From an uncultured virus (IMG/VR IMGVR_UViG_3300036770_004547) (taxonomy: Duplodnaviria > Heunggongvirae > Uroviricota > Caudoviricetes): 64,000 nt of DNA. Each line of letters opens with the position of its first letter. Position 1 is the first letter of the stretch. Made by a program: the position numbers and the translations under genes. The notes beneath the pieces were generated by a model that did no database searches, was not told the origin of the DNA, and was given only the letters and a program-made list of their open reading frames with translations. The stretch lies in the IMG/VR virus record IMGVR_UViG_3300036770_004547, one strand, 5' to 3'. Positions 15,612 through 35,101 of this stretch are shown here, in pieces.

Positions 15612-15636
15612 CGTCAAGCTGGACGTTAAACGTAGC
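15612..15636 (+). ncRNA. CGTC/GACG-TTAAAC pseudoknot, variant copy
   Basis: CGTC-aaGCTG-GACG-ttaaacg-TAGC. Confidence 0.55.
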
Positions 15637-15658
15637 ATGTCCCATCGCATTCAACACA

Positions 15659-15835
15659 ATGGTTTATTCGGTATGCATTAAGAGTTCATTGTCGTATCAA
15701 GATTTTTTGTTTGCAAAAACATTGTATAGCTCATTAGAGAAAGAGTTTTTTACTGAGCAACAAGCTCAAGAATATATCCAATCTTTTGAAGATTGGGAGC
15801 ATAACTATTTACATATAGAAGTGTTTCCGTTCTAA
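15659..15835 (+). CDS. Hypothetical 58-aa protein (not in track)
   Basis: MVYSVCIKSSLSYQDFLF...EVFPF; follows the pseudoknot. Confidence 0.5.
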   Translation: MVYSVCIKSSLSYQDFLFAKTLYSSLEKEFFTEQQAQEYIQSFEDWEHNYLHIEVFPF

Positions 15836-15843
15836 GTTTTAAC

Positions 15844-15909
15844 GCCTGATGGTGCAGGAAGGGTTCGACTCCCTTCCCAGGCATTGCCTCCAGCGGAGAT
15901 AGGCACCGC
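15844..15909 (+). ncRNA. T-loop mini-tRNA module plus CAGCGGAGAT pseudoknot, copy 1
   Basis: GCCTG..GGAAGGG-TTCGACT-CCCTTCC-CAGGC, then TGCCT-ccaGCGGagat-AGGCA-CCGC. Confidence 0.7.
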
Positions 15910-15996
15910 ACAACAGGAGTTTCCTGTGATTACGATCATTGGTTTAATTCTTATAGCGCCTTGCGTTGTTGACTTAATCCGTAACAAACGTAAGTG

Positions 15997-16194
15997 ATGT
16001 ATTTCATTGTTCTTAACGGTCAACAGTACCGTCAGTACTCAGCTAATGAGTACGCTGAAGCATTAGAAGATGCTGCACAACTGGATTACATCTATAACTC
16101 ACCAGAGTTAAATGATGGTATTCAGGGAACTAACGACATCCAACTTCTCACATTTGCTGAAATGATGGAGTCTGACGTTGTGATGGTCATCTGA
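15997..16194 (+). CDS. Hypothetical protein
   Basis: ORF track. Confidence 0.55.
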   Translation: MYFIVLNGQQYRQYSANEYAEALEDAAQLDYIYNSPELNDGIQGTNDIQLLTFAEMMESDVVMVI

Positions 16195-16260
16195 CCAGGC
16201 GTGATGCCGGGGGATCAAATCCCCCACACAACAATTACCCTCAGCGGAGATGGGTACCGC
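16177..16260 (+). ncRNA. Mini-cloverleaf plus CAGCGGAGAT pseudoknot, copy 2
   Basis: GTTGTG/CACAAC, TGGTC/GACCA, GGC/GCC, GGGGG-ATCAAAT-CCCCC, then TACCC-tcaGCGGagat-GGGTA-CCGC. Confidence 0.7.
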
Positions 16261-16278
16261 ACACACATGGAGTTATCC

Positions 16279-16557
16279 ATGATTGACCTGACTACTGGTT
16301 GGATACAACACCCAGGTGTTTCTGGTGGTTGGCATCTGGAGTATGTCGATTCTGTTTGTGGATTCGATATATCCATCGTTACGGGACCGAAGGGTTCCGG
16401 ATTGATGGGCGTTATTGCTCCAGGGCAGCCAACAACCTATGAAGCCTGGTTGCCAGGATTATCTAACCCAACAGGTTATTTAACTTTAGATGAAATACGT
16501 GGCATCATCATGTATCTTCGAGAGAAACATCGTGATGAAGCTATGTATATGGACTGA
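16279..16557 (+). CDS. Hypothetical protein (start moved to the ATG after the GGAG SD)
   Basis: SD GGAG upstream of ATG 16279. Confidence 0.6.
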   Translation: MIDLTTGWIQHPGVSGGWHLEYVDSVCGFDISIVTGPKGSGLMGVIAPGQPTTYEAWLPGLSNPTGYLTLDEIRGIIMYLREKHRDEAMYMD

Positions 16558-16620
16558 TCCGTAAAAGCGGGTGACCAGGTGCAAACCCTGGTCCAGTTAT
16601 TGCCACTCACTGAGAGTGGC
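16552..16620 (+). ncRNA. T-loop module copy 3 plus hairpin
   Basis: GACTG/CAGTT, ATCCG/CGGGT, GACCAGG-TGCAAAC-CCTGGTC, then GCCACTC-actga-GAGTGGC. Confidence 0.65.
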
Positions 16621-16630
16621 TTGTAAATCT

Positions 16631-17043: not shown

Positions 17044-17044
17044 T

Positions 17045-17098: not shown

Positions 17099-17126
17099 CT
17101 CAATTCAACTCAACCCACCTAGGACT

Positions 17127-17369: not shown

Positions 17370-17370
17370 T

Positions 17371-17518: not shown

Positions 17519-17755
17519 ATGAAACAAATCATCAAACTCGGTATCAATCGTTACATTCATCTTGATACCTATGGCCACCAGGGTGATTACATGGACAATG
17601 CCGTTGGTAAAGTTTTTACTTCACTCGTTGTCATCTGCATTGCATCTATCACTGCTGGTGCCATGTTTGGTTATGATGTCACCACATTCAACCTAGATGA
17701 TGCAACGAGATACTTACCTAAATCACACGGCACTCAAGTGGAAACCAAACGGTGA
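17519..17755 (+). CDS. Small membrane protein
   Basis: One hydrophobic segment. Confidence 0.55.
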   Translation: MKQIIKLGINRYIHLDTYGHQGDYMDNAVGKVFTSLVVICIASITAGAMFGYDVTTFNLDDATRYLPKSHGTQVETKR

Positions 17756-17840
17756 CCTCTCAACAAGAGAACTGGCTGCTGTCCATGCACTTGTTATGGC
17801 AGCAGATCAAAGAACCTTTGCACTAACTGAAACTCAACCT

Positions 17841-18062
17841 ATGACATACGTTGCACTAATCGCTGATGCAACCGGACGTTATGCCCATGTGTATGGCAAT
17901 GCCAACTCATGGGCTCAGTTCATTGATGAACTAGAGGACGTTGGTTGCGAAGTAATAGAGAATCAAACAGAAGACTACGAATCTCTTGAAGATATTCAAG
18001 AGCACTGTGTGACGATCCAACAGTTAACAGGCAAGGAATCAAACTTCATTCCTTACCCGTAA
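17841..18062 (+). CDS. Hypothetical protein
   Basis: ORF track, start trimmed. Confidence 0.55.
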   Translation: MTYVALIADATGRYAHVYGNANSWAQFIDELEDVGCEVIENQTEDYESLEDIQEHCVTIQQLTGKESNFIPYP

Positions 18063-18073
18063 CAACTAAGACA

Positions 18074-18100
18074 CGTCCTGAGTATGACGTTAAACTGCTC
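18074..18100 (+). ncRNA. CGTC/GACG-TTAAAC pseudoknot
   Basis: CGTC-ct-GAGTA-t-GACG-ttaaac-TGCTC. Confidence 0.85.
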
Positions 18101-18131
18101 TACAAACACTGCAATCAATCTCCGACAAATC

Positions 18132-18290
18132 ATGCATTCAAACGAATTCGAAAATGACATTCCGTCTGATGCACTTGATGCTATGGCGGACCAAGCCTAT
18201 GAACAGGAGCAAGCCATGCGCGAGTCTGTTCCAGAGGAATGGCTTGGTGTTGACAAATCAACTTACACACTATCCAATGTACATTTCTAA
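18132..18290 (+). CDS. Small acidic hypothetical protein
   Basis: ORF track, start trimmed. Confidence 0.5.
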   Translation: MHSNEFENDIPSDALDAMADQAYEQEQAMRESVPEEWLGVDKSTYTLSNVHF

Positions 18291-18378
18291 TGAAACAATC
18301 TCAAACCCAACAATATAATGATGATGTAATATTACACATCATTGTTATCATCTCAATCCTTATCACAGAACTCATCTC

Positions 18379-18735
18379 ATGCTTCATCCCATCACCCAAG
18401 AAATCGCTGCAACCTTTGGATACGAACCCTTCGATTCAGAAGAAGGGCAGCAGCAGTACCAGGCAGAGTGCGACTTCCAAAACGCACCAAAGGGAGCACT
18501 CCCCTGCACTGGTAACGTCTACAGAAACAAGCAGGGAGTCCTCCGTTGCTACTGGATCCCAGCCGGAAACAACTACTCGGCAGAGGAAAAGGACGACCTC
18601 ATTGGTTGGTACGACATCCCAACCAACGAAGAGATCGAGGAGTGGTGCTACGACTCAGTTGCGTTCACGCCAGGTGATGACGAAGTCGAACCGGATCACC
18701 CAGACAGTTGGCTAAGAATTCTTGGCTTGATCTAA
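18379..18735 (+). CDS. Hypothetical phage protein
   Basis: C-terminal VEPDHPDSWLRILGLI. Confidence 0.65.
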   Translation: MLHPITQEIAATFGYEPFDSEEGQQQYQAECDFQNAPKGALPCTGNVYRNKQGVLRCYWIPAGNNYSAEEKDDLIGWYDIPTNEEIEEWCYDSVAFTPGDDEVEPDHPDSWLRILGLI

Positions 18736-18840
18736 GTCAAGTATTGTTTAGCTACAAGAAATTACCAATACTACTCATGTATTGGCTAATTACCTAATAC
18801 AAAGGTTATTGAGAATTTGTAGCAATAACCTTTGGCTATT

Positions 18841-18878
18841 CCTGGGCATCCACATACTTGTGTAGTGTAAGTCCCAGG
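18841..18878 (+). ncRNA. Bulged hairpin CTGGGCA...TG-TAAGT-CCCAGG, copy 1
   Basis: Repeated at 24724 with a different apex. Confidence 0.55.
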
Positions 18879-18908
18879 ATCAATCCTTGCTCTATCTACA
18901 CACTCACC

Positions 18909-19235
18909 ATGACACAAACTGAACTTTACTTTGAACCAAAAGTTTATCAAGTCGTTGGCAGAAACAAAGAGCTAACTATTCCTATGCACGATGATAAACG
19001 CATTGAACTAATGATTAAAGAACTTAAAGCTATTGTTAAACGAGAAGAGGATCGTCCTCTTGGATACAACGATCTTCCTTATGGTTCAGAAGAACAACTA
19101 CTAGAAGCCATCGATCTTCTCGAGAAAGCAATCGAATGGCCTTATGAAATTGAAGACTCATACGGTGAACCACCTATCACCATGGATGAAATGCACAGTG
19201 CTGCATGGAAAGAACATCAAGAAGCACATCGATAA
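18909..19235 (+). CDS. Hypothetical protein
   Basis: ORF track, start trimmed. Confidence 0.6.
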   Translation: MTQTELYFEPKVYQVVGRNKELTIPMHDDKRIELMIKELKAIVKREEDRPLGYNDLPYGSEEQLLEAIDLLEKAIEWPYEIEDSYGEPPITMDEMHSAAWKEHQEAHR

Positions 19236-19441
19236 TGGAACAGCGTATCTTTGTTTTTAAAACATTTGAAAAAATTTCTGATGGAAGACCAAAGCTTTTG
19301 GCTATCCCAGAAAATCAGATAAAAGAACTAAGCACTATTTATGGCAGTCAAAATGTTTTTGTGTATGTTAATGGCATAAAAGTTGATTATTCTTTTGATC
19401 GATTAATTAAAGAACTAGGTGTTAGACACGATTGTTTTTAA
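19235..19441 (+). CDS. Hypothetical protein (AT-rich)
   Basis: TAATG-coupled ORF. Confidence 0.55.
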   Translation: MEQRIFVFKTFEKISDGRPKLLAIPENQIKELSTIYGSQNVFVYVNGIKVDYSFDRLIKELGVRHDCF

Positions 19442-19602
19442 CTAAACCGTGGTACTGCCAGATAAACACTGGCCTACCACAGGTTAAGAAACAGTTAAGA
19501 CATCACCCCCAATGTAAATGTTAAGACTCATGTCATGAGTCAAACCACTTGACAGACAGTGGTAAGCTAACAACGTTCAATTACTTCACATCATTCAAAA
19601 CT

Positions 19603-19821
19603 ATGTCAGCACTTAACGACACACCTAAACCACGTATCCCTGACTCGGTAGATCTCCAGCGATTACAAGCCATGCAACTTGTTGCTCGCATGAAAGAAGC
19701 TGCAGATCGCAATGGGATTGGTTTTGTCGGGGGCTTTGTCAGCCCCGACGGACAAAAGTTTATGATGACCAACATGGATGAAGCAGATACTCAGATGCTT
19801 CTTCCTGATGACCTTAAGTAA
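19603..19821 (+). CDS. Hypothetical protein
   Basis: ORF track, start trimmed. Confidence 0.6.
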   Translation: MSALNDTPKPRIPDSVDLQRLQAMQLVARMKEAADRNGIGFVGGFVSPDGQKFMMTNMDEADTQMLLPDDLK

Positions 19822-19973
19822 ACCAATGACTAACGCAGATGCTTTGGTAACATGCGTTGCAATTATTTGTGTAACAATCACTATCTTTAAAATACTTTCA
19901 CTATGAATACATTCTTATTGTTTATCATCTGTTTTATCCTTGGTTATTTAATAACAAATCAACTGATTAAAAG

Positions 19974-20291
19974 ATGAACACCTCTTTAAAACACGAAGAA
20001 CAAATTGATTACATCATTGATAAATTTAACTTTGAAAAAGTTAGATGCGCCATGCTTGCACTTGATTGGCAGTGGGCCTGCACTGAAGGTAAAGGATATG
20101 CAGTGCCATCAATTGCAAGACTCAAAGCAATGGCACGTCACTTGCTTCGCTCATCTATTAAAGATACCGAAGTAACATCTGGTGGACTCTATGCCACATA
20201 CTATCCTCCAGAATATGGAGATGATGATTACTTCGTCTTGAAATTTGTAGTTGCTTTTGTTAACTCTGTTGATTACAACGAAGATGACTAA
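19974..20291 (+). CDS. Hypothetical phage protein
   Basis: ORF track. Confidence 0.65.
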   Translation: MNTSLKHEEQIDYIIDKFNFEKVRCAMLALDWQWACTEGKGYAVPSIARLKAMARHLLRSSIKDTEVTSGGLYATYYPPEYGDDDYFVLKFVVAFVNSVDYNEDD

Positions 20292-20625
20292 CCAACACCC
20301 TATCCCGTCTTTGTTTCAAGTGCGAGAGTGGCGAGAAGAAGCAGTTCGCAGACAGTATACTTGTGACGAAGCTGATGAGTATATTGCCGAACAATCTGCG
20401 CAATGGAGCGCAGATAAGGAATTATTAGCTTGTGGAAATTACCTTAAGCAGTGCGCTGCGTGGGAAGAAGAAGATGTAATTGAGTTTTATAATTACCGCC
20501 GCCCCAAGCTGCCGAGCTTGAAGGAGCAGGCGCTGCTGGCGATTGATACCGCTGTCGCGGATGATCGTTTGTCGGCAGATGTTGCCAACGTTGTCCGCCG
20601 CGCACTGGAGCAACTTGATGACTAA
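20284..20625 (+). CDS. Hypothetical protein, paralog of 25520-25900
   Basis: Shared QW(S/G)AD.EL, RRPK..SLKEQAL and RRALEQLDD motifs. Confidence 0.7.
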   Translation: MTNQHPIPSLFQVREWREEAVRRQYTCDEADEYIAEQSAQWSADKELLACGNYLKQCAAWEEEDVIEFYNYRRPKLPSLKEQALLAIDTAVADDRLSADVANVVRRALEQLDD

Positions 20626-20788
20626 ACAAATTATCTACAAAGAAATTATTGAGATCGATGGTCATGAATACAAAATTGCAGAGTTTGATTACTCTGAGTT
20701 TGTAAACGACGCCATCAACCAAGACTTTATTTCAGATGACAACCAGGAAATTATCAACTGGGTTGTTTCTGACATCACTGAAATCTAA
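20618..20788 (+). CDS. Small acidic hypothetical protein
   Basis: Coupled ORF. Confidence 0.5.
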   Translation: MTKQIIYKEIIEIDGHEYKIAEFDYSEFVNDAINQDFISDDNQEIINWVVSDITEI

Positions 20789-20796
20789 TTAATTCC

Positions 20797-21060
20797 ATGA
20801 CACAAAAAGAACTTAAAGCTACATCTGCTATTGACAAGAAGAATCTTCCTGCTCAACCAGGGGATATCTGGGAATCAAACATGAAGAATAGATTTGGTAC
20901 GGGGTCCAAACTAATGGTCACTGATGAAACTTGGGATGAACACCCAGGTTTCTTGAAGTGTTTTTACCTAATTGGCTGTGCCAACATTGGGCCTTACACC
21001 ATGCTTGATTCAAAGACTATGCGTGGCTTTACTTTGTACCAACGTAAAGAATCCAAATGA
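20797..21060 (+). CDS. Hypothetical protein
   Basis: ORF track. Confidence 0.55.
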   Translation: MTQKELKATSAIDKKNLPAQPGDIWESNMKNRFGTGSKLMVTDETWDEHPGFLKCFYLIGCANIGPYTMLDSKTMRGFTLYQRKESK

Positions 21061-21257
21061 CTCAAAAGAAATCACCAATTAATTTCGACAAAACAATTGC
21101 TGGCTTTAACGTCACGGAACGAGGTATTAAATCATTTACCAAGTCAATTAAACTTGGTCCGTTCCAGGTGACATTCAATGCACGTGAGTCAGGTGTGCAT
21201 GGATCTATTAGTATCCCAGGTACAGGATTAAGCCGTCGAAACATAAAGATAATCTAA
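21057..21257 (+). CDS. DUF4236-like small protein
   Basis: FTKSIKLGPFQVTFN...SISIPGTGLS pattern. Confidence 0.6.
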   Translation: MTQKKSPINFDKTIAGFNVTERGIKSFTKSIKLGPFQVTFNARESGVHGSISIPGTGLSRRNIKII

Positions 21258-21371
21258 AGATCCCCCTACAACCCCCTGGTAACAGCCAGTACCACGAAGT
21301 AATCTCTATTACGTTTCCAAGTACATACCATTTATTAGTAATACAACTATTTATTAACTAACCATTGATCA

Positions 21372-21398
21372 CGTCCTGGACATGACGTTAAACTGTCC
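21372..21398 (+). ncRNA. CGTC/GACG-TTAAAC pseudoknot
   Basis: CGTC-ct-GGACA-t-GACG-ttaaac-TGTCC. Confidence 0.85.
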
Positions 21399-21419
21399 AT
21401 GTCCTATCTCAACTCAACC

Positions 21420-21617
21420 ATGAACTCAGCTCAGTTCCATGCAATGACTGAATGCATGGAGACTTATGGTGGTACATTTGTATCACATCTAGCTACAGCA
21501 TTACGCTATGCAGATCCAGTGAATCGTCAAAAGATTCTTGACGTATTTCCTGATCTTGTAGCTAAGTATGGTCCTGCATCTCAATTCATGAAACCCAAAA
21601 CATTAGCAGAGGTTTGA
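21420..21617 (+). CDS. Conserved small phage protein
   Basis: METYGGTFVSHLATALRYADPVNRQKILDVFPDL. Confidence 0.65.
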   Translation: MNSAQFHAMTECMETYGGTFVSHLATALRYADPVNRQKILDVFPDLVAKYGPASQFMKPKTLAEV

Positions 21618-21620
21618 TTT

Positions 21621-21878
21621 ATGACAGTCCTTGCTATTGAAAACACAATCGTTAATGGTATCCATGTCACAGTTACAGCACTTGTTGAGGACATGCGTCT
21701 TCTATTCAAAACAACTCGTGATGAGCCTGAGGAATGGGCTCCAGCTCTGTGCACAACATCTTTTGAGTTGGATCCAGAGCTGCCTATGCCAACCAGCGAA
21801 GATGACTTCTGTAATTATCTTACTGACCTCGATCTTCGGTGGGAACTCGTTGACACATCTGATTGGAACTTAGACTGA
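21621..21878 (+). CDS. Hypothetical protein
   Basis: ORF track. Confidence 0.6.
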   Translation: MTVLAIENTIVNGIHVTVTALVEDMRLLFKTTRDEPEEWAPALCTTSFELDPELPMPTSEDDFCNYLTDLDLRWELVDTSDWNLD

Positions 21879-22078
21879 TGATTGGCTTTTCAATTGAATT
21901 CAAGCGTTGGTATTTGGTTATTCGTGGACCCAAGGGTCGAGTGTACTCCGCCTTTGGGTTTGCTAAACAAATGCCAGTCATGTTGCCAAATCAAACAATG
22001 ACATTGGATGAATACTTAAAAGATTGTGACGATCAAATTGTTTTTAAAGTTGATGGTAAAGAAGTAATGCGTTGGTAA
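21878..22078 (+). CDS. Hypothetical protein
   Basis: TGATG-coupled ORF. Confidence 0.5.
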   Translation: MIGFSIEFKRWYLVIRGPKGRVYSAFGFAKQMPVMLPNQTMTLDEYLKDCDDQIVFKVDGKEVMRW

Positions 22079-22083
22079 TCCAA

Positions 22084-22110
22084 CGTCCTAAGCATGACGT
22101 TAAACTGCTT
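22084..22110 (+). ncRNA. CGTC/GACG-TTAAAC pseudoknot
   Basis: CGTC-ct-AAGCA-t-GACG-ttaaac-TGCTT. Confidence 0.85.
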
Positions 22111-22138
22111 TACACTATGAACTTACTCTGAACACATC

Positions 22139-23872
22139 ATGCAATTCCGCCTCCCTTCTAACCTGCAAACTGAACTGCTTGCGTATGACCCAGTACTTAA
22201 AAAGCTGGCACGCAGCAACAATCCAAAAACCAAAGCCAAGAAATCTACTCATCCACTTGGTAACCCCAAAGGATTAATCCCTGTTGATGTGGTGCGTGAG
22301 TCACTGCTTGACGATGCAATCACACACATCAATTCAAATCCTGCAGCAGATCGTTACCACAAATTCACACGCATTATTAATGGCGAAGTAATTGTTACCG
22401 CCATCTTGTATCACTACGAGCACTGCTGGTATGCAGCATGGTTACCACCTAAAGGGCAAGAAAGCAAGTATGTGTATGGCTATGCCTTTGCATTCAAAGA
22501 TACAAAGGCTGCACATGAAATTGTGCCTCGGGTAATTACTAACTCTATTGATTCATATCAACAAGTAGTTACTGGTCGTTCAGTAATGTACCAACATCAA
22601 GAGTTGGTTACTGTTGAGTCTATTCAAAATGGACAGACAAGTCGCAATTGGAATATCCCAAATGCTGCTGCTTACTATCAAAAGTCTAAAGAACTTTACA
22701 AGGTTATTAAACAGTTTGAAGAACAACTAGTAACTACTATTCCAGTGTGGCAAGACACTAGTAATATCTTTGAACGTCTTGCAAGCAAACATAATCTACC
22801 GTCAATTTTATTTGTTAGCTCATCAGATGCAGATAATACTTATTGGGAAACAGATGATAGAACAACTTGGCAAGCATCTTATGAATCTTTGTTTAATCTG
22901 ATTACATATCATGCACAAATTAGTGGTAGTTATGGGCATAACTATAGAAGATACAATAAGATTCTGCATATTATTTCTAAGCCATTTTTTAAGAAATGGA
23001 TTCAAGAACAATGCAATAAAGTTAACGCAACATATGTAGATGAAACAAATGAATACCGTAGTTACATCAGGCGTCCATGGCTAACCATTAATAAATTGTT
23101 TGATCGTATTCTTTATGTTAATAGTATTTGGCCTGATTGTCCTATTGATTACTATCAAAATCATATTGAACAAATGCTTAGTGTTGACTTTTCATCTTAT
23201 GGTCATCGTGATGTAACAATGGAATGGCTACGCAAGCACATGCCTGTTGCTTCATTCTTTCAAATTATTTCTAAATACTATGACAAGGAAGTAGCAGAGC
23301 AACAAACAAAGCTTGCTTCATACCATTTAAATGGTGAGCTTGGCATTCACATTTATCGTTTCTATGAATGGAACGATACAACTTCTATGCTTACCAGGAT
23401 TCTTGAAGACAAACCAGACTCAGAGTTTGCACCACCTAAGCGTTGGCGCATCGAAGAGTTTCATGATTATGTTCAGGCAGAAAACTGGAAGATTAAAAAT
23501 CCAAACCAAAGCTTGCCACAAGATTTGTTTCCTGCACCTGTCAAGATTGAACTTGGCTCTAGCAAATGGACATTCTTTCAACCCATTGATACACATCAAC
23601 TGGGTGAGTGGGGACAAGCCGTACGCAATTGCGTTGGTAATGCATCCAGCTATGCGGAGGGTGTCCGCAAGAAACAACACTTTATTGTGTTGTGTTTGAT
23701 TGATGGCAAGCCACAGTTCACTGTCCAATTGGAAGTCAACAATGGTTCAATGTTTGTCAAACAAATTGTTGGACTATCAAACTCTAGGCTTAGCCCGGAA
23801 CAACAAGAGCTGTACACTACAGCATTTGGTCAGGCATTGCAAGCACGTGAATCTGAGCTAGTATCTAACTAG
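22139..23872 (+). CDS. PcfJ-like domain protein
   Basis: C-terminal FHDY...P.DTHQLGEWGQAVRNCVG..SYA...FTVQLE. Confidence 0.7.
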   Translation: MQFRLPSNLQTELLAYDPVLKKLARSNNPKTKAKKSTHPLGNPKGLIPVDVVRESLLDDAITHINSNPAADRYHKFTRIINGEVIVTAILYHYEHCWYAAWLPPKGQESKYVYGYAFAFKDTKAAHEIVPRVITNSIDSYQQVVTGRSVMYQHQELVTVESIQNGQTSRNWNIPNAAAYYQKSKELYKVIKQFEEQLVTTIPVWQDTSNIFERLASKHNLPSILFVSSSDADNTYWETDDRTTWQASYESLFNLITYHAQISGSYGHNYRRYNKILHIISKPFFKKWIQEQCNKVNATYVDETNEYRSYIRRPWLTINKLFDRILYVNSIWPDCPIDYYQNHIEQMLSVDFSSYGHRDVTMEWLRKHMPVASFFQIISKYYDKEVAEQQTKLASYHLNGELGIHIYRFYEWNDTTSMLTRILEDKPDSEFAPPKRWRIEEFHDYVQAENWKIKNPNQSLPQDLFPAPVKIELGSSKWTFFQPIDTHQLGEWGQAVRNCVGNASSYAEGVRKKQHFIVLCLIDGKPQFTVQLEVNNGSMFVKQIVGLSNSRLSPEQQELYTTAFGQALQARESELVSN

Positions 23873-27302: not shown

Positions 27303-27343
27303 ACAACTGCGGTTGGTTGTTTACTTAATGCTTTAACAGCATG

Positions 27344-27382
27344 AAGAGATTCGATTTCTTTTCGAATCTCTTTTGCTTTTTT
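27344..27382 (+). terminator. Intrinsic terminator
   Basis: AAGAGATTCGA/TCGAATCTCTT followed by a T-rich tail. Confidence 0.6.
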
Positions 27383-27484: not shown

Positions 27485-27511
27485 CGTCCTGGATACGACG
27501 TTAAACTGTCC
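27485..27511 (+). ncRNA. CGTC/GACG-TTAAAC pseudoknot
   Basis: CGTC-ct-GGATA-c-GACG-ttaaac-TGTCC. Confidence 0.85.
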
Positions 27512-28324: not shown

Positions 28325-28397
28325 GATATTGATGCCGTGACATAGTTGCAATTGATGGGAAAGCTTGTATTATTTAACAGGCTTTCCCAAATCTTCT

Positions 28398-28631
28398 ATG
28401 CCTTACGTTATTGCCACAAGTAAAGACAATGTAAACTACTGCATCCGAGCAGAGAGCAAAACCAATTCTTTTGTTTTGATTCCTGTAGAATCTGATTCGG
28501 ATTTAGCTAAAGTCTTTTGCCATCCATACAGGATTGGCGCAACACAAATCTTGGATTGGATTAATGACAATGCCCCAGACCTCGCCAGTGAAAAACTCTA
28601 CGTTTGCGATGAAGGCAAATTCAGACACTGA
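28398..28631 (+). CDS. Hypothetical protein
   Basis: ORF track, start trimmed. Confidence 0.5.
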   Translation: MPYVIATSKDNVNYCIRAESKTNSFVLIPVESDSDLAKVFCHPYRIGATQILDWINDNAPDLASEKLYVCDEGKFRH

Positions 28632-30435
28632 GCGTTGGCTGGTGTTTGATATTGAATCTGATAATCTTTATGACAAGGTCACTAAGATTCACTGCATTGT
28701 CATCCATGATATCTACAGAAACAAAACTACTACTTATGGGCCTGACCGCATTAACGATGCTCTTGAGCATTTGGCTTGCGGTCATGTTCTAATAGGGCAC
28801 AACATTTTGTTCTATGACATTCCAGTAATCCGCAAACTGTATCCGTTTTATTTAGAAGAAACAACACGGATCATCGACACACTCATTTGCACTCGACTTA
28901 TCTGGCCTAAAGAAAAACTCTATGAACTTGACACAGAACAATATACGCAGGTTCCAAAGAACTTGTGTGGCTCAGCGTCGCTTAAAGCTTGGGGTTATCG
29001 TTTATCAGATTACAAGATTGACTTCAAAGATTTTTCTGAATACTCAGAAGAAATGGCGACCTACTGTAGGCAAGACGTATCAGTTACCTACAAATTATTC
29101 CAGCACATTCAAAAACAAAACTATCCAGAACCAGCGCTTAAACTGGAACATGACTTTGCTTTGGCAATTGAAAGACAAATTAGATCAGGTTTTCCTTTTG
29201 ATGTTGATGCATGCCTTGATCTGGTGGATGGTCTCAGAACAAAAGAAACGGAACTTGCAACACACCTAAAACAAATCTTTCCGCCCATTAAACATAAAGA
29301 AGTATTTATTCCAAAAGTAAATAACAAAACTCGTGGCTACGTTAAAGGTGTACCATTTGAAAAAATTCGTGTAGAAGAATTTAACCCTGGATCCAGGCAA
29401 CAAATTGTTGAGCGTTTAAAACAAAAGTACAATTGGCAACCTGAAAAACTAACCAAGAAAGGTAATCCAATTCTTGATGATGAAGTCATTGAGAAATTGC
29501 CATATCCAGAAGCTAAACCGTTGGCAGAATATATGTTGATTGAGAAACGTCTTGGTCAAATTGCTGATGGCAACAATGCTTGGCTCAAACTTGTCAACAA
29601 TGACACCGGTTGTATCCACGGCGATCTTATTACTAACGGTTGCATCACCGGACGAACTGCTGCAAGGAATCCAAATATTTCTCAAGTCCCTGCTGCTTAC
29701 TCCCCGTATGGAAAAGAATGTCGAAGTTTATTCCATGCTCCTGACGGGTGGTCTCTTATTGGTGTTGACGCTAAAGCACTTGAGTTGCGTTGCCTTGCTG
29801 GATACCTTGCCATCTGGGACGACGGAGAGTATGCCTCTGTTGTAACAAATCCGGACATTGATATCCATACATACAATCAAGAGAAGTTTAATGTTGCTAC
29901 TAGGGACATTTCAAAACGTCTTTTGTATGGACTCTTGTATGGATGTGGATCTTTAAAGGCTGGAACTATTATTGATCCGGATGAAAAAGATGAAGAAGTT
30001 CTGCGTCAACTAGGAAGTAATGCAATCAATTCATTCATGCGTGGATTGCCCGCACTTAAACGATTAAAGAGTGAAATCAGTTTGATGATTCAAGATCGTG
30101 GCTGGTTATACGGATTAGACAAACGTATTTTGTATTGCCGTTCTGACTTCAAAGGATTAAATGTACTGTTGCAATCTTCTGGTGCATTGATTATGAAACA
30201 AGTTGTCATTAACTTACATCAATCAATGAAAGAAACTGGTTATCAGTATGGAATTGATTGGCAACAAAATGCATTTGTTCATGATGAAATTGAATTAAGT
30301 TGTCCTTTTGATAATGTAAATACAATTACTTCAATATGCTTGCAATCTTTTATAAATGCTGGTAAATTTTTTGGATTCCGTTGTTTAATTGAAGGAGATG
30401 CAAAAGTTGGGAAAACGTGGTATGACACACATTGA
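28609..30435 (+). CDS. polA: Family A DNA polymerase (T7-like, with 3'-5' exonuclease)
   Basis: Exo motifs FDIES, GHNILFYD, YCRQDV; motif A DAKALELR; motif B KRLLYGLLYG (Tyr at the E. coli 762 equivalent); motif C VHDE. Confidence 0.95.
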   Translation: MKANSDTERWLVFDIESDNLYDKVTKIHCIVIHDIYRNKTTTYGPDRINDALEHLACGHVLIGHNILFYDIPVIRKLYPFYLEETTRIIDTLICTRLIWPKEKLYELDTEQYTQVPKNLCGSASLKAWGYRLSDYKIDFKDFSEYSEEMATYCRQDVSVTYKLFQHIQKQNYPEPALKLEHDFALAIERQIRSGFPFDVDACLDLVDGLRTKETELATHLKQIFPPIKHKEVFIPKVNNKTRGYVKGVPFEKIRVEEFNPGSRQQIVERLKQKYNWQPEKLTKKGNPILDDEVIEKLPYPEAKPLAEYMLIEKRLGQIADGNNAWLKLVNNDTGCIHGDLITNGCITGRTAARNPNISQVPAAYSPYGKECRSLFHAPDGWSLIGVDAKALELRCLAGYLAIWDDGEYASVVTNPDIDIHTYNQEKFNVATRDISKRLLYGLLYGCGSLKAGTIIDPDEKDEEVLRQLGSNAINSFMRGLPALKRLKSEISLMIQDRGWLYGLDKRILYCRSDFKGLNVLLQSSGALIMKQVVINLHQSMKETGYQYGIDWQQNAFVHDEIELSCPFDNVNTITSICLQSFINAGKFFGFRCLIEGDAKVGKTWYDTH

Positions 30436-30859
30436 TGTACAAGAATGGTTTGATTATAAAGATGGAAATTTATATTGGAAAAAATCTCCTGCTAAACAAG
30501 TAAAGGAAGGAAGTCAAGCCGGATCTATGAATGCTTATGGTTATGTAAGAGTTACTTTTAGAAAAAAAGAATATATGTTGCATCGTTTAATTTGGTTATG
30601 GCACAAAAAAGAATTAATTGAAGGAATGCAAATCGATCATATTAATCAATGTAAAACAGATAATCGAATTGAAAATTTAAGACAAGTATCTCCGTCTGAA
30701 AATAAATTAAACAATAAAGCTAAATATGTTAGTTACTCGACAAAATCTAAAAAATGGGTCGCTTATGGACCAGCAATAAAACGTGTGTACCATTATATTG
30801 GTATGTTTCAAACCAAACAAGAAGCCGAAGAAGCTGTTAAAATTTATTGTTCGTCCTAG
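30422..30859 (+). CDS. HNH endonuclease (AP2-like C-terminus)
   Basis: HRLIWLWH..IDHINQCKTDNRIENLR..YIGMFQTKQEAEEA; AT-rich. Confidence 0.85.
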   Translation: MTHIDVQEWFDYKDGNLYWKKSPAKQVKEGSQAGSMNAYGYVRVTFRKKEYMLHRLIWLWHKKELIEGMQIDHINQCKTDNRIENLRQVSPSENKLNNKAKYVSYSTKSKKWVAYGPAIKRVYHYIGMFQTKQEAEEAVKIYCSS

Positions 30860-30878
30860 GCATGACGCTAAACTGCCT
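30852..30878 (+). ncRNA. CGTC/GACG-TTAAAC pseudoknot
   Basis: CGTC-ct-AGGCA-t-GACG-ctaaac-TGCCT. Confidence 0.85.
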
Positions 30879-30899: not shown

Positions 30900-31712
30900 A
30901 TGAATCTTTCATTTCTTTGCGCTCAAACTACTGAGGTTCCAAAAGAGAAAGCTATTAGCGAAAACTCTTTTGCAACTGTGTGCAATTTGTTGCTTCCACC
31001 TGTAGGTAACAAAGCTCCAACACCGATTCAACTTAGTATCTACGGCAAAGCTGCTGAGCGTTTTGCTCGTGTACCAGCAGGTGCACAGATCTACATCCAT
31101 GGTTCAAAGCTTCGTTATGATCTGAACTCCAAAACCTATTCATTGCAAGGCGGTATTGTTACTCAAGTAGATACATCATTTCCAATTCTGAACACTGTGA
31201 TCCTTAGTGGTCGCTGTGTTAAAGACATTGATCAAGATGATGCACGTGCATTTAAGACAACCGCAGATGGATTGATGATCTGCAATCAAACTCTTTCTGT
31301 TAACACAGGAAGGAATCAAGCGGATCTGTTTAACTTCTATGCAATTAATACTGCAGAAGATAAGTTAAACAATGCCGAATTGCTTGTTAACTTTACGCGT
31401 AAAGGTATTGGCCTTAGCATCCAAGGGAAACTTGTTACTGATTCTTGGGTAGATAAAGAAACCAAAGAGAAAAAGAACCTAACCAAAATTCAGTTGGTAT
31501 CAATGACCTTGGCCCCCAAAGGGTCCAATGAGTCCAGGCCAATTGAACCCCAGACTACTGTTGCATCTGACTCAGGTGTTGCTAGTCTATGGGGTGGCAA
31601 GACCGCTGAAGACATCGCTGAGCCTTGGGGTGCACAGACTGGAAACTCTCTTCCTGATCTGCCTGGCTACGCACTGGCTTCTGTTGGTTCTGACGAAGAT
31701 GTTCCCTTTTGA
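30900..31712 (+). CDS. ssb: Single-stranded DNA-binding protein with tandem OB folds
   Basis: NTVILSGR..KGIGLSIQGKLVTDSWVDKET; acidic tail DEDVPF; N-terminal second OB-like half. Confidence 0.8.
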   Translation: MNLSFLCAQTTEVPKEKAISENSFATVCNLLLPPVGNKAPTPIQLSIYGKAAERFARVPAGAQIYIHGSKLRYDLNSKTYSLQGGIVTQVDTSFPILNTVILSGRCVKDIDQDDARAFKTTADGLMICNQTLSVNTGRNQADLFNFYAINTAEDKLNNAELLVNFTRKGIGLSIQGKLVTDSWVDKETKEKKNLTKIQLVSMTLAPKGSNESRPIEPQTTVASDSGVASLWGGKTAEDIAEPWGAQTGNSLPDLPGYALASVGSDEDVPF

Positions 31713-31717
31713 ATTCA

Positions 31718-31951
31718 ATGACTGTTTACAACCACTACGAATTTAAACACATTGATGATTCCACTACTTACTTGGTTTCATTTAATGCTGACCTTGGATC
31801 AAGTGTTATTGATTCTTTTGTTCAGTTTATGTGTGGCTGTGGGTTTGCCAAAGACTTTGTAATTGAATACATGGAAGAAATTGTTGACGAACACAAAGAC
31901 ATGAAAAAGAAACTTGCAGAAATTAAAGACGATCTTATTAGTCTTGATTGA
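31718..31951 (+). CDS. Hypothetical protein
   Basis: ORF track. Confidence 0.6.
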   Translation: MTVYNHYEFKHIDDSTTYLVSFNADLGSSVIDSFVQFMCGCGFAKDFVIEYMEEIVDEHKDMKKKLAEIKDDLISLD

Positions 31952-31956
31952 TTAAA

Positions 31957-31983
31957 CGTCCTGGGCATGACGTTAAACTGCCT
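31957..31983 (+). ncRNA. CGTC/GACG-TTAAAC pseudoknot
   Basis: CGTC-ct-GGGCA-t-GACG-ttaaac-TGCCT. Confidence 0.85.
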
Positions 31984-32004
31984 GTCACTCAACAACAAGC
32001 AATT

Positions 32005-33096
32005 ATGACTTCTATTCTTGATGCTCTGAGACAACCTGACCCCGATACTGAACAAACCTCTGAACCTACTACTAAAACTTCTGCAAAGATTATGACCACT
32101 AAGAAGACATCTGCTCTCGCTACTCGTGGACTGGATTCATTCAAACTTTTTCAAGACAAAAGGTTTGTCTCCGGATACCAAAACCTCGTCACAATTCAAC
32201 CCCTTAATAAGTCTAAGACACGAGGTTGGTTCGTGCGGAACTCAGACCTTGACACTTGTGGATGGAACGCCACTGAAGATCAATTTGCTAAGGGTTCAGT
32301 TTTCTGGAACTACAAGCAAACTTTTGGTATGGCTCCCAACACTTCAGTTGAAGAAGGACTCAATTTTGTTGAGCCTCGCATTCAAATCCTTTTACGTTCT
32401 CCCCTCATGGTTGAGGAAACTATGGGAATGAGGCAAACAATTGGAACCTTTGATGATCCAGCCGTTAAGGAATTGTTTGATGCTGACAAGACGGCATCTG
32501 ATCTTGCCAATAGCAAAGGTGAGATGTACAAGCGTAAGTACAGTGTGCGTACCAAGTATCTTGTTTACATCTTGACAGAAGATAACAAGCGTGCACACAA
32601 GATTCCAATGGTCCTTACTTTGAAAGGACTGAATGGAACTGATGCTGCTGACAAGATTAAACTGTATGAAAAGGAGATGTCTAAGTGCTTAAGCAAAGCA
32701 CTGGACTCTGAGATTCCATTGGCATTCAATGAAAAGTTCTACGCCACTACCGTATTTGCTCCGGTACTTGCCAACGAAATGCGTGGAGCCAACAACGTTG
32801 AGATCTGTGCAATTGAATCTTTTGGTATCCCTGATTACAGCAGCCAAGAAACAGCAATCGAATCACTGAATCAAATGTCAATTCCTGATGAAGATCGGGA
32901 ATCAACTTGGAAGTATCAAGACATGTTTGCTGACTATATTAATCAGCATGCAAAACAAGATGCTGAAAAACTTGGTGGTGCTTATGGAATTAAAGAAGGT
33001 GTAGAAATTCTTCCTGCATCTAGGGGTGGTGATGTAGATGTCAAACTCTTAGCATCTGCACAAGATCCTGATACTGGAGAAAATTATTCTTTCTGA
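32005..33096 (+). CDS. Hypothetical protein (DUF5895-like; candidate ssDNA-binding/annealing protein)
   Basis: PRIQILLRSPL..YLVYILTEDNKRAHKIPMVLTLKG; acidic-aromatic tail; replication context. Confidence 0.5.
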   Translation: MTSILDALRQPDPDTEQTSEPTTKTSAKIMTTKKTSALATRGLDSFKLFQDKRFVSGYQNLVTIQPLNKSKTRGWFVRNSDLDTCGWNATEDQFAKGSVFWNYKQTFGMAPNTSVEEGLNFVEPRIQILLRSPLMVEETMGMRQTIGTFDDPAVKELFDADKTASDLANSKGEMYKRKYSVRTKYLVYILTEDNKRAHKIPMVLTLKGLNGTDAADKIKLYEKEMSKCLSKALDSEIPLAFNEKFYATTVFAPVLANEMRGANNVEICAIESFGIPDYSSQETAIESLNQMSIPDEDRESTWKYQDMFADYINQHAKQDAEKLGGAYGIKEGVEILPASRGGDVDVKLLASAQDPDTGENYSF

Positions 33097-33356
33097 GATT
33101 TAAGTTCGGGGTTAGCAATGTCATTTGCATCAATCAACACATTGTTGAATAGGTGGATGTCTTTGACTAACCCTCTAATTACTGCTTGACGTTGTGTGGC
33201 GATTCTTGCCAAAAGGGTCGCCATTTCTTTTAAAGCACTTACGGAATTACACTCTTGAATTGAACGTTTAATTTTTTCTTCCCAAAACAAATCATCCATT
33301 GATGGTTCAATGTCAAACTTGCTAAGAGGTACGTAATGCTCTTCCATAAGTACCAT
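33084..33356 (-). CDS. Hypothetical protein (isolated minus-strand gene)
   Basis: ORF track; helical with NblA-like size, function unproven. Confidence 0.55.
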   Translation of the reverse strand: MVLMEEHYVPLSKFDIEPSMDDLFWEEKIKRSIQECNSVSALKEMATLLARIATQRQAVIRGLVKDIHLFNNVLIDANDIANPELKSQKE

Positions 33357-33389
33357 GGAGGATAATCAATTCTACACACAACTACACAA

Positions 33390-33566
33390 ATGAAACCAGA
33401 AGATAAAGCAGCATTTGCTACGGGACTAACAACTGGTCTGGTCGCTGGCACAATTGCTGCTATGCTAGGGACGCCCGCAGGCTGGGCTATTACCATTTGG
33501 GGTACGTACCTAATGGCTAAAGGTGTTTACGAAAGCACCAAATACAACTCAACACCAAAGAAATGA
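33390..33566 (+). CDS. Small membrane protein (not in track)
   Basis: MKPEDKAAFATGLTTGLVAGTIAAMLGTPAGWAITIWG; ATGA-coupled to the next gene. Confidence 0.55.
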   Translation: MKPEDKAAFATGLTTGLVAGTIAAMLGTPAGWAITIWGTYLMAKGVYESTKYNSTPKK

Positions 33567-34528
33567 CTGAACTAATTACTCAACTTAATCAAGCTCAACA
33601 ACTTATCTACACCAAAAGCAATCTGCGTCGTGCGTTCCAAGACTTTGATGACACAGAAATCTCTTCCATTTATTTGCGAGATGATCTTGTTATCGTGGTG
33701 CGTAACGATGGTACTGAGCAAACTTACAACAGGCAACTAATTAAAGCTGCGTACCAGCAGTTCACTTATCGTTTAAAAGATTTCTTTTCTTACTTGGGAC
33801 CTAACTTTCGTGGACCATCCATCTGGCGCAACAACTCTTACATCATGTTCAAAGGTTGGCATTACAGCCACAAGTTGGGGTATCTTTCGCAAGCTGCGCA
33901 AATGCAACGTGCGTGGGCCGATAAGTTCATTCATATTTCAGATCAGGCTAAATTGGTTCATTTACTCCAATCAGATCAAACTGATCTTGGGCACCTCGTT
34001 GCCCCTGATGGTTTCCACGAGATTGATCAGGCCATTGATCTTGATGCTCCTGAACTTGATTCGACTACTGAAGCTGAAAGCGTACCTAAACTACAGGCAA
34101 GTCCGTACTGCTCTTGTGGATCATTTCAGCGACAGTTAAATAATCTGTCTGAGTTCCAGGCTGAGATTGAAGGTTACAAACCCTGGTGCATTCACTTGAC
34201 ATGGATGCAGCGATATCGTCAACTCCTTGTTAAGCGCAGTGAAGTCAGGTCGCAATGCCGTGGTCAAACTGCAGAGCAAGCGGTAGCCTGGTGGTACGCC
34301 CCACCAGAAGGCACATCAAATGAAGGTCGGTTTCTTGTTCTATACACCAAGCAGGGCTCTATGGCTCCGCTTAAAGCCTGGCGTACTTACAAACCAAAAG
34401 AAGTCTTTACGCAACATCATGTCTGGGATTTGTTTGATAACATGTTAGACAACGGGTTCATTCCATTTCCTGGGACTGCACTTCCACAACTGAGTAATGC
34501 ATGGAAAACACCGGCAAAGAGTACGTAG
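33563..34528 (+). CDS. SWIM zinc-finger protein
   Basis: YCSCGSF...KPWCIHL (CxC..CxH). Confidence 0.7.
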   Translation: MTELITQLNQAQQLIYTKSNLRRAFQDFDDTEISSIYLRDDLVIVVRNDGTEQTYNRQLIKAAYQQFTYRLKDFFSYLGPNFRGPSIWRNNSYIMFKGWHYSHKLGYLSQAAQMQRAWADKFIHISDQAKLVHLLQSDQTDLGHLVAPDGFHEIDQAIDLDAPELDSTTEAESVPKLQASPYCSCGSFQRQLNNLSEFQAEIEGYKPWCIHLTWMQRYRQLLVKRSEVRSQCRGQTAEQAVAWWYAPPEGTSNEGRFLVLYTKQGSMAPLKAWRTYKPKEVFTQHHVWDLFDNMLDNGFIPFPGTALPQLSNAWKTPAKST

Positions 34529-34758
34529 CTCAAATGCAATTTGAATGTACTGACCCAGAGTCTGTCTTTAAACTAGACATCCGATTCATTGAAGAAGAAG
34601 ATGGGGGCGGCACTATTCAAATTGAATGGGACGAAGAAGATGCTGATCTCCAGTGGTGGAATAACCTTGGAGAAGAAAAACAACAACAGTTTATTATTGA
34701 TGCCTTAAACGTTGCTATTTCTAATGCACTTAATGGAGATGAGTCTGATGAGCTTTGA
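34501..34758 (+). CDS. Acidic hypothetical protein
   Basis: ORF track. Confidence 0.55.
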   Translation: MENTGKEYVAQMQFECTDPESVFKLDIRFIEEEDGGGTIQIEWDEEDADLQWWNNLGEEKQQQFIIDALNVAISNALNGDESDEL

Positions 34759-35065
34759 AACTTATGGCTTGCCTGAAGGTGAGTACTATAAACTTCTGCG
34801 CAGCAAATCTGAGTTTATTCTTAACTGCCTGGCGGTTATGACAACTGAAGCTTCTAATAAAGGCATTAACCTTCAAGGGTTTAGTGATAAGTTTCTTTGG
34901 GATTTGTTTATGGAATGTGTGTACTCTGCTGATGAGCAAGCACGCATGATTCAAAAAGAAAACAACCCAGATGAAATTAAAGCTCGGTCATGGGATCCAG
35001 GGCCTAGCCGGGGTGACATGATGGAAGAAATTAAAAACATCAAAGAACTACTAACAGACAAATAG
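34748..35065 (+). CDS. Hypothetical protein
   Basis: ORF track, start trimmed. Confidence 0.55.
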   Translation: MSFETYGLPEGEYYKLLRSKSEFILNCLAVMTTEASNKGINLQGFSDKFLWDLFMECVYSADEQARMIQKENNPDEIKARSWDPGPSRGDMMEEIKNIKELLTDK

Positions 35066-35074
35066 TTTGTTATA

Positions 35075-35101
35075 CGTCCTAAGCATGACGTTAAACTGCT
35101 T
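35075..35101 (+). ncRNA. CGTC/GACG-TTAAAC pseudoknot
   Basis: CGTC-ct-AAGCA-t-GACG-ttaaac-TGCTT. Confidence 0.85.

Follow-up and report, generated by a model that had tools for sequence, protein, structure and literature searches.

The window and its copies of the knot

The uncultured virus IMGVR_UViG_3300036770_004547 (IMG/VR; Caudoviricetes) is represented by a stretch of 64,000 nucleotides (nt), here called the window, which carries eight dispersed copies of a short element, named the knot below, that is predicted to fold as an H-type RNA pseudoknot. Leftward genes occupy 1 to 14.5 kb of the window and include a terminase and a 1129-aa protein. Rightward genes extend from 14.6 to 40.7 kb, a block in which many small open reading frames (ORFs) are mixed with early and replication genes for a PcfJ-like protein, a tRNA-Leu, HNH endonucleases, a GP88-family protein, a family-A DNA polymerase, the single-stranded DNA-binding protein SSB and a DUF5895 protein. 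The source is a cyanobacterial virus related to Synechococcus phage S-EIVl (KJ410740), the sole cultured relative found, with which the window shares 73.4% nucleotide identity across 78% of a 5.8-kb query; the two PolA proteins are identical at 72.6% of their amino acids.

The pattern CGTC-N8-GACG-N-TAAAC occurs at seven sites of the window, all on the + strand (18074, 21372, 22084, 27485, 30852, 31957 and 35075), against a chance expectation of 0.03; none of 100 shuffles reaches seven. The shorter GACGYTAAAC occurs at eight sites, again all on the + strand, the eighth being a variant at 15612. The coordinates and strand given in the original prediction, which was made by a model from the sequence alone, are thereby borne out. 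Stem 1 (CGTC/GACG) is identical in all eight copies, and the seven full copies fit CGTCCT-N5-Y-GACG-YTAAAC-N5'. Their loop and downstream pentamers, exactly as listed in that prediction, are GAGTA/TGCTC, GGACA/TGTCC, AAGCA/TGCTT (twice), GGATA/TGTCC, AGGCA/TGCCT and GGGCA/TGCCT. Every stem-2 cell pairs across these six different sequences, and the three non-Watson-Crick cells are all G-T on the + strand, also as claimed. The stretches that separate stem 2 from the first open ATG measure, in the order of the eight copies, 20, 31, 0 (or 21 to the next in-frame ATG), 28, 51, 21, 21 and 23 nt, and the leaders behind the knots contain 0-10% G.

The short-loop copy opens the series at 15612..15636 (+). 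Its sequence, CGTC-AAGCTG-GACG-TTAAAC-GTAGC, provides a stem 1 of CGTC (15612-15615) and GACG (15622-15625), the loop AAGCTG, the linker TTAAACG and a stem 2 of GCTG (15618-15621) with TAGC (15633-15636). It belongs to a short-loop subclass (loop RAGCTG, GYAGC downstream) with a 4-bp stem 2 (GCUG/YAGC), nine further copies of which were found in IMG/VR. A G-poor leader runs from it up to ATG 15659 of a 58-aa ORF, and the covariance model introduced below, whose bit scores are quoted for the other copies, matches it in part (15622-15631). The second copy (18074..18100, +; GAGTA/TGCTC; 46.9 bits) lies 11 nt past the stop of ORF 17697-18062 and 31 nt before ATG 18132 of a 52-aa ORF. The third (21372..21398, +; GGACA/TGTCC; 48.8 bits) is separated by a 114-nt gap from ORF 21057-21257 and is followed by ATG 21399 or, 21 nt on, by the next in-frame ATG. 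The fourth (22084..22110, +; AAGCA/TGCTT; 47.5 bits) is flanked by ORF 21863-22078, whose stop lies 5 nt upstream, and by the PcfJ-like gene (22139-23872), 28 nt downstream; the covariance model finds its ortholog upstream of the PcfJ-like homologue of S-EIVl.

Further to the right, the fifth copy (27485..27511, +; GGATA/TGTCC, junction base C; 44.3 bits) follows a terminator-like hairpin (27343-27373) by 112 nt and precedes by 51 nt the GP88-family gene (27563-28324), behind which polA (28534-30435) lies on the same strand; S-EIVl carries an orthologous copy. The sixth (30852..30878, +; AGGCA/TGCCT, linker CTAAAC; 43.2 bits), which likewise has an orthologous copy in S-EIVl, is located 21 nt ahead of ssb, which starts at 30900. 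This copy encloses the TAG (30857-30859) that ends an HNH endonuclease ORF (Pfam HNH_3; 30389-30859, +). This ORF is situated between polA and ssb, where S-EIVl has no HNH gene, and it looks like a homing-endonuclease insertion that terminates within the pseudoknot.

The seventh copy (31957..31983, +; GGGCA/TGCCT with one G-U; 48.0 bits) is found in the gap between ORF 31709-31951 and the DUF5895 gene, 5 nt past the stop of the former and 21 nt before the start of the latter at 32005, and its counterpart in S-EIVl is weaker (17.3 bits). The eighth (35075..35101, +; AAGCA/TGCTT; 47.9 bits) is placed 9 nt past the stop of ORF 34712-35065 and 23 nt before ATG 35125 of a conserved 40-codon ORF, the start of which is the same in related contigs. 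The downstream genes named in the original prediction could be recovered for PcfJ-like (22139), GP88 followed by polA (27563), SSB (30900) and DUF5895 (32005). Its HicA-like label found no support, since the ORFs after 35075 match no Pfam family and, in PHROGs, only families of unknown function.

Covariation of the two helices

An exact-pattern scan of IMG/VR that constrained nothing beyond TAAAC returned at least 144 instances; in this and the later scans, the letters fixed by a search pattern (e.g. TAAAC) are invariant by construction outside the window. Among the 144 matches listed, stem 2 is fully paired in 121 and has one mismatch in 20. Dropping duplicates from these matches and adding the window copies gave a set of 131 unique copies, in which 47 distinct complementary stem-2 combinations occur. 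In their gap-free alignment 95.5% of cells pair, as opposed to 88.4% in shuffles, and 125 cells are changed on both sides, as opposed to 47.3±7.5 (none of 500 shuffles reaches the observed value), although many copies are orthologous sites of related phages, so that fewer independent events lie behind these cells than their counts suggest. Pairing falls to 17-52% when the 3' partners are slid by 1-3 columns. Stem 2 itself has 5-6 pairs, with 92.5% of its cells paired and four of the six pairs changed on both sides. A seventh pair, between the loop C and position +28, was ruled out, as only nine of the 131 copies have a G there. The junction base is U in 108 copies and C in 23. Wobble cells comprise 65 G·U and 9 A·C, an excess which indicates that the folding strand is the sense strand.

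Because the first pattern fixed stem 1, this helix was freed in two further scans. When the 3' base of the outer pair was required not to be G, 94 of the 125 matches listed had a perfect stem 2. Of these 94, 64 carry the complementary 5' base (A-U 28, U-A 27, G-C 7, G-U 2) and 30 are unpaired at this position. When the 3' base of the second pair was required not to be C, the scan was complete with 56 matches, and all 40 copies with a perfect stem 2 pair there as well (A-U 20, C-G 11, U-A 4, U-G 3, G-U 2), compared with 6 of 14 in the chance class of the same scan (three stem-2 pairs or fewer). Since stem 2 and the two outer pairs of stem 1 covary, both interleaved helices are kept by compensatory change. 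Hence, the covariation expected among homologs of a true structure is present in both helices, and together with the G·U excess it favours the RNA structure of the original prediction over a DNA promoter. We consider it very probable, judging by these comparisons, that a 27-nt H-type RNA pseudoknot exists.

A covariance model that treats stem 2 as pairs recovers the seven full window copies at 43-49 bits, and nothing else in the window exceeds 10 bits. In S-EIVl the model finds seven copies on the coding strand, five at 31-35 bits and two at 16-17 bits. These precede homologues of ssb, the PcfJ-like gene, GP88 and DUF5895 as well as other small genes, and their stem-1 and stem-2 sequences differ from those of the window copies while remaining complementary. 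Other contigs carry 9, 8, 3, 2 and 1 copies, in each case on one strand and clustered. The repeated use of the element on one strand that had been suggested for the window is seen elsewhere too.

Distribution in phages and prophages

Rfam 15 offers no family for the element at either setting. At the gathering score, only the tRNA-Leu was matched in the window and none of the knots. At E values up to 10 over 14400-41000, none of the nine matches overlaps any copy, preQ1 and pistol families included in the comparison. A permissive Rfam scan of 20 bacterial loci gave nothing other than a sub-threshold hammerhead beside one copy. The knot motif is a family missing from Rfam, with about 300 instances collected here.

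In species-representative genomes the scan returned at least 124 instances; among the matches listed, 46 have a perfect stem 2, 22 have one mismatch and 56 have three pairs or fewer. The latter 56 are the expected chance class for a 15-base pattern in so much DNA. Well-paired bacterial copies come from Firmicutes (Enterococcus, Finegoldia, Butyrivibrio, Ruminococcus, Selenomonadaceae and others), Saccharibacteria, Chloroflexota, a Bradymonadales metagenome-assembled genome (MAG) and one Bacteroidetes MAG, host assignments being the MAG labels. Where the context was examined, these copies look prophage-borne. The Enterococcus copy adjoins a minor-capsid-like gene, and the Saccharibacteria copy lies 7 nt past the stop of a small ORF with small ORFs around it. 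Among 80 of the at least 124 instances, Pseudomonadota account for none of 29 fully paired loci versus 6 of 34 chance-class loci, a phylum bias that is suggestive only, and seven of the fully paired loci represent one conserved Saccharibacteria element.

A variant from Chloroflexota has the stem 2 GGCUG/CAGCC, in which the otherwise constant A-U pair beside the linker is replaced by G-C. It occurs at eight loci (L169, L191, L193, L212, L215, L245, L254 and L257) whose flanks differ among genomes. Tandem elements spaced 7-8 nt apart were found at four loci (L038, L100, L101 and L240). Judging by its occurrence in hundreds of phage and prophage sequences, the motif is a widespread and portable module and is not specific to this genome.

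Placement between genes and before tRNAs

The position of the knot relative to its neighbours is regular. In the 106 of the 131 copies with a visible upstream ORF, the gap that separates the knot from the preceding stop codon is most often 5 nt (35 copies) and falls between 5 and 11 nt in 70, and in six copies, that at 30852 included, the stop codon falls within the motif. From the end of the knot to the first open ATG the peak is 20-23 nt (45 of 106). The 20 nt behind the knot contain 10.5% G, compared with 20.9% upstream, and are no more structured than shuffles. An upstream T-R-A signal at -8 to -6 was considered as a part of the fold and is explained by the stop codon of the upstream gene. 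Downstream of stem 2, nothing is conserved in the alignment of 131 copies.

A terminating ribosome would open any structure lying much nearer to its stop codon than about 5 nt, and about 20 nt marks the 5' edge of an initiating ribosome. Given these ribosome footprint distances, the cassette looks as if it were placed as close as possible without being disturbed. Not all copies stand before protein-coding genes. Five of the 264 unique well-formed copies are found 4-12 nt before a tRNA gene, namely the IMG/VR loci L391, L436, L507, L510 and L515 (Arg, Arg, Gly, Tyr and Tyr). These copies before tRNAs suggest that the role of the knot is not tied to translation. Five loci with one stem-2 mismatch (L387, L415, L421, L435 and L454) also precede sequence resembling the start of a tRNA gene. 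At one locus of Butyrivibrio (L179:201-278), the copy abuts a type III hammerhead (30.2 bits, below the Rfam cut-off of 48.5; E 0.003), whose ribozyme stem begins at the final base of stem 2 with no gap.

Resemblance to the coremin RNA of eukaryotic RNA viruses

The core of the knot closely resembles coremin (xrRNA_C), an exoribonuclease-resistant RNA (xrRNA) of plant and fungal RNA viruses, among them beny-, cucumo- and many other viruses. According to the coremin reports (PMC6546385, PMC10520033, PMC10321173), the motif is GUCCGAAGACGUUAAACUAC, in which C1-C4 and G9-G12 form the first hairpin (hp1) and U13-C21 the spacer UUAAACUAC with A16-A20 essential. hp1 has 3-5 bp of the type (C)GUC/GAC(G), where pairing is required and compensatory changes are tolerated, and its loop (lp1) follows the rule YGAD (4 nt) or YGNNAD (6 nt). 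For resistance to Xrn1, the same reports describe a further hairpin (hp2), immediately behind the spacer, as strictly needed. In Watson-Crick variants of coremin (xrRNA_WCC), loop positions 6-8 pair with spacer positions 18-20 to give an H-type pseudoknot, and the linker adenosines are predicted to touch stem 1. An octaloop variant from groundnut rosette virus departs from the loop consensus and is Xrn1-resistant. On meeting coremin, Xrn1 halts one nucleotide ahead of hp1; the element also blocks scanning ribosomes and stimulates -1 frameshifting, so that in sum it withstands machinery pulling on the RNA from its 5' side. The database searches described there covered RNA viruses only (PMC6546385, PMC10520033, PMC10321173).

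A further scan of the phage form in which the 8-nt loop was left free yielded 121 unique copies among the matches listed. In these, the loop begins with C in 120 copies and has A at position 7 in 119. Position 2 holds U 104 times and C 14 times, while the last base, position 8, is U (89), A (19) or C (13), so that the phage loop consensus reads C-Y-R-R-R-Y-A-D. The first U of the linker is replaced by C in 12 of the 131 copies. The two RNAs share the stem 1 CGUC/GACG, in which pairing matters more than sequence and which covaries in the phage form. They also share a pyrimidine at the first loop position, the loop end A-D and the linker UUAAACU, of which the letters TAAAC were fixed by the search patterns outside the window. 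In both, base pairs connect the loop to the 3' portion of the spacer, and the pair of the loop A with U19 and the next pair match pairs 7-19 and 6-20 of the Watson-Crick type. Tandem copies and intergenic sites are likewise common to both; at L100 and L101, the second element, 8 nt behind an 8-loop copy, has a 6-nt loop that fits YGNNAD and is followed by TTAAACTA.

The contexts of the two are different. Coremin is found in the 3' untranslated region of eukaryotic RNA viruses, whereas the knot belongs to double-stranded DNA phages and prophages and occupies 5' leaders or intercistronic sites; the phage stem 2 has 5-6 canonical pairs, compared with 0-3 in coremin. What is new here is that the stem 1, first loop base and UUAAACU of the phage motif are, in sequence, identical to those of coremin. 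Full-text searches of open-access papers, a scope that leaves most subscription journals outside, brought up none that links coremin or xrRNAs to phages or bacteria. We judge the phage knot to be probably related to coremin, by homology or by convergence on one fold.

Canonical coremin motifs (CGAA or CGNNAT loop, TA(C) and, by eye, an apparent hairpin behind it) were also observed on short IMG/VR contigs of 1.6-13 kb. They include L266, L297, L320 and L384 and about a dozen hexaloop loci (e.g. L276, L291 and L323), and these contigs are probably RNA viruses inside IMG/VR.

A putative roadblock to 5'-3' decay

We propose that the knot acts as a protein-free, directional and mechanical roadblock before each cistron that halts 5'-3' decay, a function to which we would give even odds by analogy with coremin. 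Each copy would be transcribed within early or replication mRNAs and would fold as a 27-nt H-type pseudoknot with stem 1 CGUC/GACG, a loop 1 of C or CU, a variable stem 2, one junction pyrimidine and a UUAAAC linker that crosses stem 1. The longer canonical stem 2 may replace the weak loop-spacer contact of coremin and its hp2. After an upstream cut in a polycistronic transcript, the enzyme of 5'-to-3' decay, which would be RNase J in cyanobacteria, Firmicutes and similar bacteria or perhaps a 5'-end-dependent scanning RNase E, would stop at the knot. The cistron or tRNA precursor downstream would thereby be spared, and its 5' end would be both defined and protected. The knot might trap an RNase J-type enzyme in the way that the subgenomic flaviviral RNA (sfRNA) traps Xrn1. 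We infer from the comparison with coremin that the fold equals that of coremin, that it confers nuclease resistance and that it is used in infection. The original prediction had offered an exonuclease roadblock, a translation enhancer and an operator for a phage protein as possible functions, and the core in common with coremin, a likeness that the prediction did not recognise, lends independent support to the roadblock. In its widest form the proposal is that the knot represents the first natural class of exoribonuclease-resistant RNA of prokaryotic viruses, a minimal 27-nt Watson-Crick relative of coremin that stands before cistrons and tRNAs in double-stranded DNA phages from many bacterial phyla and stops RNase J-type decay. 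We put the probability of this reading, which draws on analogy, at roughly 0.4.

Obstacles near the 5' end of an RNA are already known in bacteria. Gram-positive and phage 5' stabilisers that stop RNase J1 include ermC, aprE, the cryIIIA STAB-SD and the SP82 leaders, and the hbs mRNA is reportedly among them as well (PMC5737220). As in our proposal, such an obstacle shields the downstream RNA from 5'-3' decay and is used in phage early RNA. To our knowledge, all known 5' stabilisers are bound ribosomes or simple 5'-terminal hairpins, and none is a conserved pseudoknot family found across phyla. Ring-type xrRNAs of flaviviruses and of tombus- and poleroviruses provide a second precedent, as a protein-free, direction-specific and pseudoknot-dependent block of 5'-3' exonucleases is described as a feature of xrRNAs in two reports (PMC5760640, bioRxiv 10.1101/2025.04.15.649049). 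In the same sources a flaviviral xrRNA blocks bacterial RNase J1 in vitro, which is taken to reflect a general mechanical mechanism. Unlike the knot, these RNAs measure about 45-70 nt, combine several helices into a ring around the 5' end and have no sequence in common with it. The frameshift pseudoknots of luteoviruses, namely beet western yellows virus (BWYV) and potato leafroll virus (PLRV), are compact H-type folds too, with a loop 1 of 1-2 nt and an A-rich loop in the minor groove of stem 1 (PMC10321173). The phage knot differs in having no slippery heptamer and in sitting past stop codons or between genes, and the BWYV pseudoknot is reported not to stall Xrn1 (PMC10321173).

Several points weigh against this reading. 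All 20 sequencing runs listed for 17600-23000 of the window are recorded as DNA. The phage loop has 8 nt with U or C at position 2, instead of the G of YGAD and YGNNAD. Spacer position 20, which pairs with the loop, is A in coremin, but of the 131 phage copies 117 have G there, 11 have A and 3 have U. A counterpart of hp2, sought as a hairpin of at least 4 bp beginning 0-4 nt past stem 2, occurs in 6 of 131 copies and equally in 6 of 131 shuffled ones; the folding energy of the next 30 nt behind stem 2 averages -2.0 kcal/mol, compared with -1.5 in shuffles. Because the loop rule and hp2, two defining features of coremin, are thus lacking, we do not file the knot as a plain coremin member, and the likeness could be convergence on a stable fold with another use. 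RNase J is reported to be present in cyanobacteria (PMC7283877). Above the curated cut-off it is encoded in four of five motif-bearing bacterial genomes and in 8 of 14 control genomes, numbers too small to discriminate; since the controls encode the enzyme too, co-occurrence is no more than compatible with the proposal. A Bacteroidetes MAG that carries the knot encodes no RNase J scoring above this cut-off. Finally, protection from decay does not readily account for a knot that precedes a tRNA gene or, directly, a hammerhead.

Alternative functions

The enhancer idea of the original prediction is best kept as part of a broader alternative in which the knot insulates cistrons, keeping a G-poor leader that lacks a Shine-Dalgarno (SD) sequence unpaired and stopping post-termination ribosomes from sliding, or serves as a standby or enhancer site. 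The fixed spacing agrees with it, both in the 20-23 nt from knot to start in 45 of 106 copies and in the minimal gap of 5 nt behind the upstream stop, and so do the leaders, which have 10.5% G and, in the S-EIVl-like group, no obvious SD. Coremin is also reported to block scanning ribosomes and to stimulate -1 frameshifting. The copies 4-12 nt before tRNA genes (5 of 264) and the one directly before a hammerhead weaken this alternative, as do other copies, in Firmicutes prophages, that lie 50-90 nt from the start before ordinary SD leaders. Moreover, any stable hairpin would do as an insulator, which leaves the invariant coremin-type core unexplained, and we regard this explanation as unlikely. 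An operator for a phage- or host-encoded RNA-binding protein, exerting joint control of early genes after the paradigm of T4 gene 32 and regA, would account for the invariant loop and linker bases and for many one-strand copies per genome, restricted to the early and replication block with one of them before ssb. The leader pseudoknot of T4 gene 32 is present in a single copy on its own mRNA and works via cooperative binding of the SSB protein. Like it, the knot is a pseudoknot of phage mRNA leaders, but it has eight copies before unrelated genes, only one of which is ssb. It is also common to unrelated phage and prophage backgrounds in several bacterial phyla, where it precedes tRNAs and capsid-type genes, and coremin is reported to act without protein in eukaryotic RNA viruses. 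The analogy with gene 32 drawn in the original prediction, or an SSB-specific operator, is therefore not supported, and an operator of any kind seems to us quite improbable.

A DNA promoter for the RNA polymerase of host or phage, in which TAAACT would serve as a -10-like hexamer and the knot would never be transcribed, was weighed seriously because of TAAACT itself and of the tRNA spacing. The hexamer has the A at position 2 and the T at position 6 of a -10 element, the 5' ends of the tRNAs (position 31 in three of five cases) lie near the expected start of such a promoter, one Enterococcus prophage copy begins 2 nt past a T-run, and many copies per early region resemble phage promoters. Recognition of a duplex, however, cannot explain two covarying interleaved helices or a ratio of 65:9 between G·U and A·C cells. 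The T after TAAAC varies, as in TAAAC-CAGCC of Chloroflexota with its compensating loop A-to-G change and in the short-loop TAAAC-G. No -35 conservation is seen upstream of the motif, a sigma-70 consensus scan calls none of the eight window copies, tandem copies are only 7-8 nt apart, and the same core is reported to work as RNA in RNA viruses. On balance, a promoter is highly improbable. A small-molecule sensor or a self-cleaving or processing element is barely credible. The short stem 1, loop-to-3' pairing, A-rich linker and junction pyrimidine (U in 108, C in 23 of 131) resemble preQ1-I riboswitches and, among pistol ribozymes, their 5' half. Self-cleaving ribozymes often cluster, and a hammerhead adjoins one copy. 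Yet none of the Rfam families, preQ1 and pistol included, matches the copies with E values of 10 or less, an expression platform is missing (the start codon lies at least 20 nt away and is not sequestered), no conserved sequence follows stem 2, and the genes and tRNAs downstream are unrelated to one another.

Significance of a phage relative of coremin

We know of exoribonuclease-resistant RNAs only from eukaryotic RNA viruses. One report on such RNAs refers to RNase J1 as an enzyme that they "never naturally encounter". If the roadblock reading is true, a coremin relative across hundreds of phage and prophage sequences would extend the xrRNA concept to bacteria. It would also explain how polycistronic phage messages without SD sequences could be stabilised cistron by cistron, and it would provide a portable 27-nt part for RNA stability and insulation in cyanobacteria and Gram-positive bacteria. 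One tiny fold would then have been reached, or exchanged, by bacterial and eukaryotic viruses against unrelated nucleases. The phage form may furthermore serve as a structural handle on the unsolved coremin fold, as its loop and spacer are joined by canonical pairs, whereas the corresponding contact of the plant viruses is non-canonical.

Other features of the window

Other structured elements were observed in the rightward block. At 16537-16628 (+), a sub-threshold Rfam match to the Streptococcus small RNA SpF41 (31.3 bits, cut-off 52; E 0.25) covers a T-arm-like hairpin and a terminal hairpin and might mark a small structured RNA. A 13-bp hairpin (28356-28389, +), which separates the GP88-family gene from polA and has a T-rich tail, resembles a terminator within an apparent single operon; a weak snoRNA-type Rfam match at the same position was judged surely a chance hit. 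The tRNA-Leu of the early region (anticodon UAA; 24131-24203, +) is directly followed by a second HNH endonuclease gene (24222-24722, +).

A ferritin-like protein is encoded at 39250-39801. To the right of it, the window contains a cluster of sugar-nucleotide and glycosyl-transfer genes at 43772-47599 and 52535-53797, which encode two CAP59-like mannosyltransferases, a DegT-family aminotransferase, a GDP-mannose 4,6-dehydratase and a GT4 glycosyltransferase.

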